Source of the DNA: a virus
Taxonomy: Duplodnaviria > Heunggongvirae > Uroviricota > Caudoviricetes
Length of the DNA stretch: 64,000 nt
Strand: one strand, 5' to 3'
Virus record (IMG/VR): IMGVR_UViG_2880412407_000011
The notes beneath the pieces were generated by a model. It was not told the origin of the DNA, did no database searches, and saw only the letters and a list, made by a program, of their open reading frames with translations. Each line of letters starts with the position of its first letter. The stretch's first letter is position 1. Shown here in pieces: positions 19,219 through 27,232 of the stretch. The position numbers and the translations under genes are program-made.

Positions 19219-19739
19219 TGGCATTCAGAATGAGTGAACAAGCACGGACCATAAAAATTTATAATCTGCTGGCCGGAACTAATGAATTTATTGGTGAAGG
19301 TGACGCATATATTCCGCCTCATACAGGTCTGCCAGCAAACAGTACCGATATTGCACCGCCAGATATTCCGGCTGGCTTTGTGGCTGTTTTCAACAGTGAT
19401 GAGGCATCGTGGCATCTCGTTGAAGACCATCGGGGTAAAACCGTCTATGACGTGGCTTCCGGCGACGCGTTATTTATTTCTGAACTTGGCCCATTACCGG
19501 AAAATGTCACCTGGTTATCCCCGGAAGGGGAGTTTCAGAAGTGGAACGGCACAGCCTGGGTGAAGGATACGGAAGCAGAAAAACTGTTCCGGATCCGGGA
19601 GGCGGAAGAAACAAAAAACAACCTGATGCAGGTAGCCAGTGAGCATATTGCGCCGCTTCAGGATGCTGCAGATCTGGAAATCGCAACGGAGGAAGAAATC
19701 TCGTTGCTGGAAGCATGGAAAAAGTATCGAGTGAGGTAG
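19218..19739 (+). CDS. tfa: tail fibre assembly protein Tfa, 3' end replaced by IS insertion
   Basis: 173-aa lambda Tfa-like ORF; last two codons and stop supplied by the IS left end at 19732. Confidence 0.8.
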
Positions 19740-19795
19740 CCTGAGTTTAACGGACACTCCTTCCTGAAATAGAATGGCATCAGAAGGAGCTAATA

Positions 19796-20098
19796 ATGAG
19801 CAGAAAAACCCAACGTTACTCTAAAGAGTTCAAAGCCGAAGCTGTCAGAACGGTTCTTGAAAATCAACTTTCGATCAGTGAAGGCGCTTCCCGATTATCT
19901 CTTCCTGAAGGCACTTTAGGACAATGGGTTACCGCCGCCAGAAAAGGGCTCGGTACTCCTGGTTCCCGCACGGTGGCTGAACTGGAATCTGAAATTCTGC
20001 AACTGCGTAAGGCGTTAAATGAAGCTCGCCTTGAGCGAGATATATTAAAAAAAGCAACAGCGTATTTTGCACAGGAGTCGCTGAAAAATACGCGTTAA
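19796..20098 (+). CDS. IS3-family transposase OrfA (IS600-like)
   Basis: 100 aa HTH protein MSRKTQRYSKEFKAEAV...; identical copy on the minus strand at 26866-27168. Confidence 0.85.
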   Translation: MSRKTQRYSKEFKAEAVRTVLENQLSISEGASRLSLPEGTLGQWVTAARKGLGTPGSRTVAELESEILQLRKALNEARLERDILKKATAYFAQESLKNTR

Positions 20099-20133
20099 TC
20101 GAACAATGGCGACAACAATTTCCCATTGAAGCG

Positions 20134-20952
20134 ATGTGTCAGGTATTTGGTGTATCCAGGAGCGGTTATTACAACTGGGTACAGCATGAACCCTCAGACA
20201 GAAAACAAAGTGATGAGCGGCTAAAACTGGAGATTAAGGTGGCACATATCCGCACTCGCGAAACATATGGAACCCGGCGGCTCCAGACGGAGCTGGCAGA
20301 GAATGGCATCATCGTTGGTCGTGACCGACTGGCACGTCTTCGTAAGGAGCTAAGGCTACGCTGTAAGCAGAAACGCAAGTTCAGAGCGACTACGAACTCG
20401 AACCACAATCTGCCAGTTGCGCCAAATCTGCTGAACCAGACGTTCGCTCCTACAGCACCAAATCAGGTCTGGGTGGCGGACCTGACGTATGTTGCCACAC
20501 AGGAGGGATGGTTGTACCTCGCTGGCATCAAAGATGTTTATACGTGCGAAATTGTCGGCTACGCCATGGGAGAGCGCATGACAAAAGAGCTGACAGGTAA
20601 AGCTCTGTTTATGGCGCTCAGGAGCCAGCGCCCACCTGCCGGGCTAATCCACCACTCTGATCGAGGTTCACAGTACTGCGCATACGATTACCGGGTCATA
20701 CAGGAGCAGTTTGGTCTGAAAACATCAATGTCGCGTAAAGGTAACTGTTACGACAACGCTCCGATGGAAAGCTTCTGGGGAACGCTGAAAAATGAGAGCC
20801 TGAGCCACTATCGTTTTAATAACCGGGATGAAGCCATCTCAGTAATACGGGAATACATTGAGATTTTCTACAATCGTCAGCGTCGTCACTCTCGTCTGGG
20901 GAATATCTCCCCGGCAGCCTTCAGGGAAAAATATCATCAGATGGCTGCTTAA
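20134..20952 (+). CDS. IS3-family transposase OrfB (DDE integrase domain)
   Basis: 272 aa; HHSDRGSQY and DNAPMESFWG motifs; identical copy at 26012-26830. Confidence 0.85.
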   Translation: MCQVFGVSRSGYYNWVQHEPSDRKQSDERLKLEIKVAHIRTRETYGTRRLQTELAENGIIVGRDRLARLRKELRLRCKQKRKFRATTNSNHNLPVAPNLLNQTFAPTAPNQVWVADLTYVATQEGWLYLAGIKDVYTCEIVGYAMGERMTKELTGKALFMALRSQRPPAGLIHHSDRGSQYCAYDYRVIQEQFGLKTSMSRKGNCYDNAPMESFWGTLKNESLSHYRFNNRDEAISVIREYIEIFYNRQRRHSRLGNISPAAFREKYHQMAA

Positions 20953-20995
20953 AAAAAGAACAAATGGTAGTGTCCGCTATTGCCAGTACACCTCA

Positions 20996-21058
20996 GGGTA
21001 TTGCTGAACCGTGTTGATACGTCAACTGCACAGGATATTGAATGGCCAGCACTGCCGT
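20996..21058 (+). other. displaced 3' remnant of tfa
   Basis: Translates LNRVDTSTAQDIEWPALP*, the expected lambda-type Tfa C-terminus, directly after the IS right end. Confidence 0.6.
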
Positions 21059-21157
21059 AGGGTAAAACATATAAATTCTATAATTAGATGTATCTTTCCA
21101 TTTACGGCAAGGAAGGGGGCTTGGAAGACGTAAAGCATCTCACACCGAGATTATTTT

Positions 21158-24734: not shown

Positions 24735-25622
24735 TCAGGCTGCCAGATCATCGTTTCTGATGGAAGCATAATAAGCTTTTTCTGCTTCTGCCGGAGGGAT
24801 ATGACCCAGCCTTCCCAGCAATCGTCGATTGTTATACCAGTCCACCCACGTGAGTGTGGCCAGTTCCACTTCTGCACGGTTTTTCCAGCTCTTACGGTGT
24901 ATTACCTCCGCTTTGTAAAGACCATTGATGCTCTCCGCCATCGCGTTGTCATACGAGTCACCTGTACTCCCTGTTGATGCCAGCAGTTTTGCTTCTTTTA
25001 GTCGCTCCGTATAGGCCAGTGATACATACTGAGAACCTTTATCACTGTGATGGACTGTGCCGGACGGCCGACGGGCCCACAACGCCTGCTCCAGTGCATC
25101 CAGCACGAATGTCGTTTCCATAGACGATGAGACTCGCCACCCCACGATACATCCGGCAAACACATCAATGATGAACGCCACATAGACGAAGCCCTGCCAT
25201 GTGCTGACGTAAGTAAAATCAGCCACCCACAGCTGGTCAGGACGTTCTGCCACGAACTGACGGTTTACGCGGTCGCCTGCGGAAACGGCTTTCCGGCTGA
25301 CGGTAGTACGGACCTTTTTACCCCGGAGAACACCGGCAAGTCCCATAACCGCCATGAGGCGCGCCACTGTACATCTGGCCACCCTGATACCTTCGCGTAA
25401 CAACTGGCGCCAGACTTTACGCACACCGTACACCTGATGATTTTCATCGTATACGCGCTGTATCTCTCTCTTCAGCCAGTCATCGCGCTGAGCACGGGCA
25501 CTGCGTTTATCAGGATGATGTCGCTGTTGCTGACAGTGGTAATACGTTGACGGGGCAATATGCAGCTCACTGCATACCGGTCCGACCCCGTACTGCTCAC
25601 GCAGCTTATCCAGCAGTGGCAT
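24735..25622 (-). CDS. IS629-like transposase OrfB
   Basis: 295 aa; DDE integrase motifs (HHSDKGSQY, DNAMAES). Confidence 0.85.
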   Translation of the reverse strand: MPLLDKLREQYGVGPVCSELHIAPSTYYHCQQQRHHPDKRSARAQRDDWLKREIQRVYDENHQVYGVRKVWRQLLREGIRVARCTVARLMAVMGLAGVLRGKKVRTTVSRKAVSAGDRVNRQFVAERPDQLWVADFTYVSTWQGFVYVAFIIDVFAGCIVGWRVSSSMETTFVLDALEQALWARRPSGTVHHSDKGSQYVSLAYTERLKEAKLLASTGSTGDSYDNAMAESINGLYKAEVIHRKSWKNRAEVELATLTWVDWYNNRRLLGRLGHIPPAEAEKAYYASIRNDDLAA

Positions 25623-25948
25623 TATTTTTTCCAGAGGCGGTCGAACTCCGCCTTCGCAAAATAAGCGGAAGCCTGGCGAAGGATATCGTTACTGCGGCGC
25701 AGTTCACGATTTTCACGTTCCAGCTCTTTCAGACGCTGACGTTCAGCGGTGGTGAGTCCACCATCACCGCCCCCGGTATCCCGCTCATGCTGACGAACCC
25801 ACACACGCAGAGTCTCTGGTGTACAGCCAATCTTTGGGGCAATGGAACAAATTGCCGCCCATTGTGAGTCATATTCGCCCTGACTTTCCAGAACCATACG
25901 AACTGCCCGTTGACGGACCTCAGGGGAAAAACGTGTATTTTTAGTCAT
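25622..25948 (-). CDS. IS629-like transposase OrfA
   Basis: 108 aa; [22 protein letters not shown]... HTH/leucine zipper. Confidence 0.85.
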
Positions 25949-26011
25949 CCTGTTTACCTCTTTCTCAGGGAGTTTAGTCTCCAGGATTCCCGGGGCGGTT
26001 CAGTTCTTTTT

Positions 26012-26830
26012 TTAAGCAGCCATCTGATGATATTTTTCCCTGAAGGCTGCCGGGGAGATATTCCCCAGACGAGAGTGACGACGCTGACGATTGTAGAAAA
26101 TCTCAATGTATTCCCGTATTACTGAGATGGCTTCATCCCGGTTATTAAAACGATAGTGGCTCAGGCTCTCATTTTTCAGCGTTCCCCAGAAGCTTTCCAT
26201 CGGAGCGTTGTCGTAACAGTTACCTTTACGCGACATTGATGTTTTCAGACCAAACTGCTCCTGTATGACCCGGTAATCGTATGCGCAGTACTGTGAACCT
26301 CGATCAGAGTGGTGGATTAGCCCGGCAGGTGGGCGCTGGCTCCTGAGCGCCATAAACAGAGCTTTACCTGTCAGCTCTTTTGTCATGCGCTCTCCCATGG
26401 CGTAGCCGACAATTTCGCACGTATAAACATCTTTGATGCCAGCGAGGTACAACCATCCCTCCTGTGTGGCAACATACGTCAGGTCCGCCACCCAGACCTG
26501 ATTTGGTGCTGTAGGAGCGAACGTCTGGTTCAGCAGATTTGGCGCAACTGGCAGATTGTGGTTCGAGTTCGTAGTCGCTCTGAACTTGCGTTTCTGCTTA
26601 CAGCGTAGCCTTAGCTCCTTACGAAGACGTGCCAGTCGGTCACGACCAACGATGATGCCATTCTCTGCCAGCTCCGTCTGGAGCCGCCGGGTTCCATATG
26701 TTTCGCGAGTGCGGATATGTGCCACCTTAATCTCCAGTTTTAGCCGCTCATCACTTTGTTTTCTGTCTGAGGGTTCATGCTGTACCCAGTTGTAATAACC
26801 GCTCCTGGATACACCAAATACCTGACACAT
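26012..26830 (-). CDS. IS600-like transposase OrfB (copy B)
   Basis: Identical protein to 20134-20952. Confidence 0.85.
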   Translation of the reverse strand: MCQVFGVSRSGYYNWVQHEPSDRKQSDERLKLEIKVAHIRTRETYGTRRLQTELAENGIIVGRDRLARLRKELRLRCKQKRKFRATTNSNHNLPVAPNLLNQTFAPTAPNQVWVADLTYVATQEGWLYLAGIKDVYTCEIVGYAMGERMTKELTGKALFMALRSQRPPAGLIHHSDRGSQYCAYDYRVIQEQFGLKTSMSRKGNCYDNAPMESFWGTLKNESLSHYRFNNRDEAISVIREYIEIFYNRQRRHSRLGNISPAAFREKYHQMAA

Positions 26831-26865
26831 CGCTTCAATGGGAAATTGTTGTCGCCATTGTTCGA

Positions 26866-27168
26866 TTAACGCGTATTTTTCAGCGACTCCTGTGCAAAAT
26901 ACGCTGTTGCTTTTTTTAATATATCTCGCTCAAGGCGAGCTTCATTTAACGCCTTACGCAGTTGCAGAATTTCAGATTCCAGTTCAGCCACCGTGCGGGA
27001 ACCAGGAGTACCGAGCCCTTTTCTGGCGGCGGTAACCCATTGTCCTAAAGTGCCTTCAGGAAGAGATAATCGGGAAGCGCCTTCACTGATCGAAAGTTGA
27101 TTTTCAAGAACCGTTCTGACAGCTTCGGCTTTGAACTCTTTAGAGTAACGTTGGGTTTTTCTGCTCAT
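26866..27168 (-). CDS. IS600-like transposase OrfA (copy B)
   Basis: Identical protein to 19796-20098. Confidence 0.85.
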   Translation of the reverse strand: MSRKTQRYSKEFKAEAVRTVLENQLSISEGASRLSLPEGTLGQWVTAARKGLGTPGSRTVAELESEILQLRKALNEARLERDILKKATAYFAQESLKNTR

Positions 27169-27232
27169 TATTAGCTCCTTCTGATGCCATTCTATTTCAG
27201 GAAGGAGTGTCCGTTAAACTCAGGCTACCTCA

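Follow-up and report, generated by a model that had tools for sequence, protein, structure and literature searches.

Inversion of an integrase-bearing segment between opposed IS600 copies at a tandem-prophage joint of Escherichia coli O121:H19

Two identical insertion sequences (IS) that face each other across an attachment and integrase region raise an obvious question, namely whether recombination between them turns that region over and whether it has already done so in any sequenced relative. The locus in question lies within a stretch of 64,000 nucleotides (the window) from the IMG/VR record IMGVR_UViG_2880412407_000011, assigned to the Caudoviricetes, where two copies of IS600 in opposite orientation interrupt the tail fibre assembly gene tfa and the excisionase gene xisR and enclose 3660 bp carrying the integrase gene int. 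This segment is 100% identical to chromosomes of E. coli O121:H19 (Shiga-toxin E. coli, STEC). An earlier note on the same DNA, made from the letters alone, had proposed that recombination between copy A (in tfa) and copy B (in xisR) would invert the attachment/integrase segment, and we indeed found the flipped segment in two complete genomes, 2014C-3655 and 2015C-3107. We consider it very probable (roughly 0.88) that two independent IS600 insertions, followed by homologous recombination between them, have given rise to an inversion polymorphism at the joint of two prophages.

The prerequisite of such a process, extended inverted homology, is present. A repeat search over positions 17000-30000 of the window returned a perfect inverted pair of 1230 nt (19732-20961 with 26003-27232, 100% identity) and a second one of 38 nt (20959-20996 with 24655-24692, also 100%). 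When the reverse complement of copy A was compared by script with copy B, after removal of positions 24693-26002 and one GTT, 1264 of 1264 positions were identical, which cannot be due to chance. Copy A (19732-20995, plus strand) is 1264 bp long, runs from TGAGG to CCTCA and contains orfA (19796-20098) and orfB (20134-20952). Copy B, on the minus strand, comprises a main part of 1230 bp (26003-27232), in which both transposase open reading frames (ORFs; 26866-27168 and 26012-26830) are intact, and a right-end stub of 37 bp with the terminal inverted repeat (24656-24692). The right end is split from the rest by a nested IS, and the uninterrupted homology between the copies in the window amounts to 1230 bp. 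Both copies have the length of about 1264 bp, the TG...CA termini and the terminal inverted repeats of IS600. Their ORFs of 100 aa and 272 aa match the NCBIfam model transpos_IS3 at positions 1-86 and 106-369 of 369 (IS3 transposase matches of 6.6e-13 and 7.4e-100 for copy A), and the identical sequence is labelled 'IS3-like element IS600 family transposase, programmed frameshift' in RefSeq; this points to the two-ORF DDE transposase of IS600, with a programmed -1 frameshift that is predicted. The positions given in the earlier note for the identical, opposed copies (19732-20995 and 24656-27232) proved exact; the limits of its 2577-bp copy B stand, and what it left unmentioned is the 1310-bp IS inside that copy.

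Each copy splits one gene, and the two parts of that gene remain collinear across it. The 5' part of tfa (19218-19731, plus strand; taken from the ORF list and annotated 'tail fiber assembly protein' in L001) is continued on the same strand beyond copy A by the last 63-66 nt of the gene (20996-21061, encoding VLLNRVDTSTAQDIEWPALP and the stop), and the Tfa rebuilt from 19218-19731 and 20999-21061 has 191 aa and the same sequence as the Tfa that strain 2014C-3599 encodes in an unbroken gene. On the minus strand, copy B has entered xisR behind codon 14 of 83 and separates a 5' part (27233-27274, MSEVIMIVSPGKWV) from a 3' part with codons 15-83 and the stop (24443-24655); once rebuilt, Xis matches in every residue the 83-aa protein encoded by the uninterrupted gene of the O26 strain 2014C-3057. 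Copy B is bordered by a perfect 3-bp target duplication, with TAC at 24653-24655 repeated at 27233-27235, where the xisR 5' part begins; in the orientation of the IS it lies between AAATGGGTA and GTATCCGAAG. Copy A lies between AAGTATCGAG and GGGTATTGCTG, that is, between GAG (19729-19731) and GGG (20996-20998), which agree at 2 of 3 positions and are common to every genome carrying this copy. The earlier note was right about the duplication of copy B and overlooked the imperfect one of copy A. Where tfa is free of the IS it reads TATCGAG-TATTG, and the O26 allele reads TATCGGG-TGTTG. The IS600 target has been described as a 3-nt sequence (PMC9397093), and 3-bp duplications flank IS600 elsewhere in our set (GTC/GTC in 2014C-3599, L004; ATT/ATT in O26 2014C-3057, L008). 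An alternative tfa allele (O26 has CGG-GTG at this codon pair), shifted IS boundaries and carry-over of donor flanks were all tried as explanations of the GAG/GGG pair, and none fits cleanly.

The junction expected from an inversion was then sought in 5,426 complete E. coli genomes. This synthetic sequence, made of 1500 bp from the tfa 5' side, IS600 and the reverse complement of 23156-24655, was matched with 100% coverage and 100% identity in two of them, 2015C-3107 and 2014C-3655. Native junction A was recovered as a single 100% piece in five genomes (2014C-4423, 16-9255, FWSEC0006, 2002-3211 and GTVSS-020), and native junction B gave a one-piece match in the same five. Eight complete genomes with about 100% identity over this region could be scored for the state of the locus: five are oriented as the window, two are inverted and one (2014C-3599) is differently rearranged. 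In 2014C-3655 the blastn map reads tfa 5' part, IS600 (+), reverse complement of 20996-24655, IS600 (-), then xis 5' part to recE. The triplets adjoining the IS copies are GAG-IS-GGG for copy A and GTA-IS-GTA for copy B in the native state, and GAG-IS-GTA and GTA-IS-GGG in the inverted one; they are swapped between the copies, as predicted by a crossover inside the IS. Both orientations are therefore found in close relatives, with breakpoints in the repeats and exchanged flanks, and since they occur among sister strains the locus is a structural polymorphism. A comparison of this kind had been suggested in the earlier note, which would have given up the idea had all related genomes shared one orientation; they do not.

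The remaining differences among these strains concern IS600 as well. Genomes 2014C-3655, 2015C-3107 and 2014C-3599 share a derived single-nucleotide polymorphism (SNP), 16563 G>T, at which the O26 outgroup has G, and on the strength of this one SNP they are probably members of a single subclade. After the flip, the second IS600 stands between perfect 5-bp direct repeats (GGGTA-IS-GGGTA), of which a clean loss leaves one. The locus of 2015C-3107 is inverted and its second junction is free of the IS, the reverse complement of the tfa 3' end being joined to the xis 5' part through a single GGGTA (L002 15419-15424). This IS-free junction is consistent with excision of the type promoted by the IS-excision enhancer (IEE), assembly collapse being the alternative. 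Strain 2014C-3599 (L004 12630-18298) has no copy A and an intact tfa; the DNA from copy B to a third IS600, located in recE (duplication GTC at window 29660-29662), is inverted, and a 966-bp deletion next to the IS (23690-24655) removes the 5' part of int and the 3' part of xis. The locus has thus undergone another IS600 x IS600 inversion, independent of the first. If the three genomes do form a subclade, the absence of copy A is a secondary clean excision. IEE-promoted excision of IS600 has been demonstrated experimentally in O121:H19, with IS600 in lacZ and about 27 IS600 copies (PMC9397093), and could account for both clean losses, in 2014C-3599 and 2015C-3107. In all, near-identical strains show this one 10-kb locus in five or more structural states.

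Judged by gene order, the orientation of the window is the ancestral one, because both split genes are collinear and the O26 genome 2014C-3057, with an intact xis and its IS600 elsewhere, has the order and orientation of the window (stf-tfa-pin-ydfK-ynfT-int-xis-recE). The earlier note's view that the window has not been inverted since copy B inserted agrees with this gene order, with the collinear halves of tfa and xis and with the TAC duplication; an even number of past flips is also compatible with the un-inverted state.

These observations can be assembled into the following scenario. Two independent IS600 insertions would have entered, in opposite orientation, tfa of a Qin-like prophage and xisR of the adjacent lambdoid prophage carrying nleC. 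The resulting 1.26 kb of perfect inverted homology would serve as a substrate for general homologous recombination, and a crossover inside the IS would flip the 3660-bp segment and swap the outer flanks of both copies. We infer that this crossover was RecA-dependent, that is, of the RecA type rather than driven by transposase. The strain of the window is in the ancestral, un-flipped state and has later gained an IS629/IS1203-like element in copy B. Several points weigh against this scenario. The inversion is seen as fixed differences between assemblies, ongoing switching within one culture being hypothetical, and the two inverted genomes, given the SNP that they share, could go back to a single flip rather than to recurrent flipping. 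RecA-mediated and transposase-mediated routes give the same product and are inseparable by sequence. Copy A lacks a perfect duplication, for which we found no cause, and the effects that a flip might have on int/xis expression or on prophage excision are conjectural.

A first way to do without recombination is to suppose that the IS600 insertions are unrelated and never recombine, the inverted public genomes being artefacts of assembly over a 1.26-kb inverted repeat. It is true that assemblers can be misled by inverted repeats, that a single orientation is displayed by the window and five genomes, and that int of 2014C-3655 has a 1-bp indel resembling a long-read homopolymer error. However, the same flip with base-perfect junctions is present in two separate assemblies, the IS-free junction of 2015C-3107 can be derived only from the inverted state, and the whole structure measures about 6.2 kb, easily spanned by a single long read. 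A static locus is consequently a very improbable explanation.

We give just as little credence to an inversion in one step, in which intramolecular transposition of a replicative type would have taken the xis copy into tfa, inverting the DNA and duplicating the IS. Such an event would yield the topology and flanks expected from recombination, and the transposase ORFs are intact in both copies, yet the un-inverted state with two copies and GAG/GGG flanks exists in the window and in five genomes, some of them outside the inverted subclade. Since copy A with GAG/GGG occurs in un-inverted genomes outside the subclade, it is older than the flip. To arise in one step, the structure would require IS600 to have struck that very base once more and to have acquired the identical odd flank, and the idea was rejected on parsimony. 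IS3-family elements, besides, move by a copy-out/paste-in route via a circle and are not known to generate adjacent inversions, which we also count against it.

There is next to no room for a programmed switch in which the segment is turned by the serine invertase Pin that it encodes. The pin gene is intact and lies inside the segment, and Pin/Gin/Hin systems do invert DNA beside tail-fibre genes, but the limits of the inverted block coincide precisely with the IS600 copies, and one orientation only is seen in O26 and other genomes that lack the IS pair. A crossover core of the AAACCNNGGTTT type (AAACC-NN-GGTTT) was not found within or beside 19732-27232, and the whole window has one match with 1 mismatch, at 51936, against 2.1 expected by chance; the boundaries of the segment are not those of a site-specific invertible switch of the Pin/Hin/Gin type. 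Finally, arrival of the IS600 pair and the DNA between them as a composite transposon, for which an inverted IS pair around a few kilobases is the classic layout, is hardly conceivable, as the outer flanks (GAG and TAC) form no single target duplication, each IS splits its own gene with the halves on either side, and the inner DNA is native to this locus, being in place and identically ordered where these IS copies are absent.

Recombination between two independently inserted copies thus remains our preferred explanation, and the 3660-bp segment on which it would have acted deserves description. Besides the 3' end of tfa and most of xis, it contains, all on the minus strand, pin (21158-21745; 195 aa, NCBIfam serine recombinase/invertase, annotated 'recombinase family protein' or pinQ), the cold-shock gene ydfK (22062-22295; annotated with 77 aa, its start being 11 codons downstream of that of an 88-aa ORF at 22062-22328), a small gene of the ynaM/ynfT family (22364-22477, from the annotation of L001 shifted by +996) and int (23128-24423), which encodes the 431-aa tyrosine integrase of the second prophage (NCBIfam tyrosine recombinase, annotated 'site-specific integrase'). 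The segment also has an AT-rich non-coding stretch, with a GC content of 0.33-0.36 at 21800-22800. Between ynaM/ynfT and int lies a sequence (22816-23093) that is 80-89% similar to the right end of the second prophage beside truncated ydfJ, as seen when 22330-23140 was compared by blastn with L006 and the prophage ends were taken from the annotation; this similarity fits a shared attachment (att) joint of the two prophages. To the right, beyond xisR, follows the recE-like exonuclease VIII gene of the second prophage (27347-29809, minus strand; NCBIfam exodeoxyribonuclease VIII, 3.4e-301). Pin, an AT-rich island with an 88-aa ORF and int had all been correctly placed in the roughly 3.7 kb by the earlier note, the ORF now being recognizable as ydfK. 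Its list missed the tfa 3' end, ynaM/ynfT and the tandem-prophage joint, and its 'half' of xis, correctly given as the 3' part, is in fact about five sixths of the gene.

The wider setting is provided by the annotation of strain 16-9255, which over about 105 kb reveals two tandem prophages at the ydfJ locus. The first is defective and Qin-like, with a right end of stf-tfa-pin-ydfK-ynfT, and the second is lambdoid, starts with int-xisR-recE-dicB and ends with nleC-dinI beside truncated ydfJ; it looks largely intact. Tandem prophages have been described in O121:H19, with ydfJ as a conserved integration site (Nishida et al., PMC8767318). The RefSeq content and names (pinQ/tfaQ/ydfK/ynfT, xisR, exonuclease VIII), as well as the insertion locus ydfJ, recall the cryptic prophages Qin and Rac of E. 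coli K-12. Whereas K-12 has a Qin with the pinQ-ydfK-ynfT end and a Rac with the intR-xisR-recE end, here a Qin-type right end directly abuts an int-xisR-recE left end in two tandem prophages, the second of which carries nleC. In 16-9255 the int of the first prophage is truncated by IS66-family elements, and its terminase large-subunit gene, just left of the window, is split by an element of about 10 kb (L005 18372-30669) that brings its own integrase, primase, SSB and capsid-protease fusion gene and resembles a satellite or a small integrative element. Upstream of tfa, the tail-fibre gene stf contains internal direct repeats (17567-17805 and 18873-19062) with 107-nt units that are 78% identical and 40-nt units encoding His-rich motifs of the HTHS type, probably the usual repetitive architecture of tail fibres. 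An Rfam match to IS009, a candidate small RNA from an intergenic sequence, covers the full length of the model with 200 bits (19561-19759, plus strand); it spans the tfa 3' region and 28 nt of the left end of IS600, to which the 3' end of the model is oddly aligned.

The element nested in copy B (24693-26002, minus strand) is a 1310-bp member of the IS3 family with termini TGAACC...GGTTCA, ORFs at 25622-25948 and 24735-25622 that match the NCBIfam IS3 transposase model, and an Rfam ALIL frameshift pseudoknot at 25551-25667 (120 bits). It is located directly after the stop codon of IS600 orfB, before the right terminal repeat, and is flanked by a 3-bp duplication of GTT (24690-24692 and 26003-26005). 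With 96.0-96.4% identity to copies annotated as IS1203, above the 95% taken as threshold, it has the features expected of the IS629/IS1203 group, the exact name being provisional. All the complete E. coli genomes searched lack it at the copy B site, their best matches being unrelated places with an IS inside or next to another IS; it is therefore specific to the source strain.

Every state of the locus has a disrupted xis. The truncated gene keeps an open frame that starts inside the IS (window 24443-24877, minus strand; L001 23447-23710). In strains without the nested element RefSeq annotates it as an 87-aa 'xisR' whose first 17 residues (LLKKRTNGSVRYCQYTS) derive from the IS600 end, and in the window the frame continues into the nested IS and reaches 144 aa. 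Such an IS-fused frame might yield a hybrid Xis.

STEC of the O26 type have the same tandem-prophage joint, in which IS600 or other members of the IS3 family have inserted at different points. In O26 2014C-3057, IS600 occupies L008 6681-7944, between stf and tfa, with a duplication of ATT; RM10386, 03_3469 and UTAK-12 are other O26-type examples. Matches in O26 and other genomes that at first resembled IS600 at the xis or tfa sites used here proved, on inspection, to be insertions elsewhere (within int, next to it, or in the interval from stf to tfa) that the search had joined non-collinearly. A shared insertion hot spot was accordingly rejected. The comparison suggests a region that repeatedly collects IS insertions in different lineages.

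How does this locus compare with systems already described? As in the inversions mediated by IS629, IS600 and IS1 in STEC and Shigella, and in those between prophages of O121:H19 (PMC8767318), identical inverted repeats act as portable homology, flanking duplications are exchanged and relatives display both orientations. The O121:H19 inversions reported there are large, chromosomal and between prophages at ydfJ, ttcA and dusA, whereas the one studied here covers 3.7 kb on the att/int joint; IS600 is mentioned 0 times in that article. The excision of IS3-family elements by IEE (PMC9397093) concerns the same lineage and the same IS. There it was observed experimentally, whereas here it would have occurred twice, as deduced from genome comparison, restoring tfa in 2014C-3599 and clearing the second junction in 2015C-3107. 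The tail-fibre switches of the Pin/Gin/Hin/Cin type likewise combine an invertase gene beside stf/tfa with a segment in two orientations, but they use 26-bp crossover sites and exchange alternative tail-fibre ends, whereas here the boundaries are IS600 copies without a crossover core and int and att lie inside. In a full-text literature search, neither this 3.7-kb inversion nor the existence of five states at the locus was found to have been described. The locus is nonetheless a textbook case of an inversion polymorphism mediated by IS copies where two prophages meet, in a lineage with many copies of IS600, and combines known elements without a new mechanism.

For the prophages themselves, the flip would place int and the truncated xis in the direction of the tail operon of the first prophage and of IS600, out of the early-left operon of the second. 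It would also turn the shared att joint round with respect to the outer att sites, in which case the integrase would flip the prophages instead of excising them. That the flip, once frozen by IEE-driven loss of IS600, acts as a population-level toggle between an excisable and a permanently grounded nleC prophage is an idea to which we attach very little likelihood. What the comparison does bring out is that IS copies, as portable homology, have restructured the att/int joint between tandem prophages in a lineage of major importance as a food-borne pathogen. This may be of use in reading structural variants and differences in pulsed-field gel electrophoresis (PFGE) or long-read typing within O121:H19 and in judging whether the nleC prophage can still excise, and it adds another probable case of IS600 excision to those of a lineage with demonstrated IEE activity.

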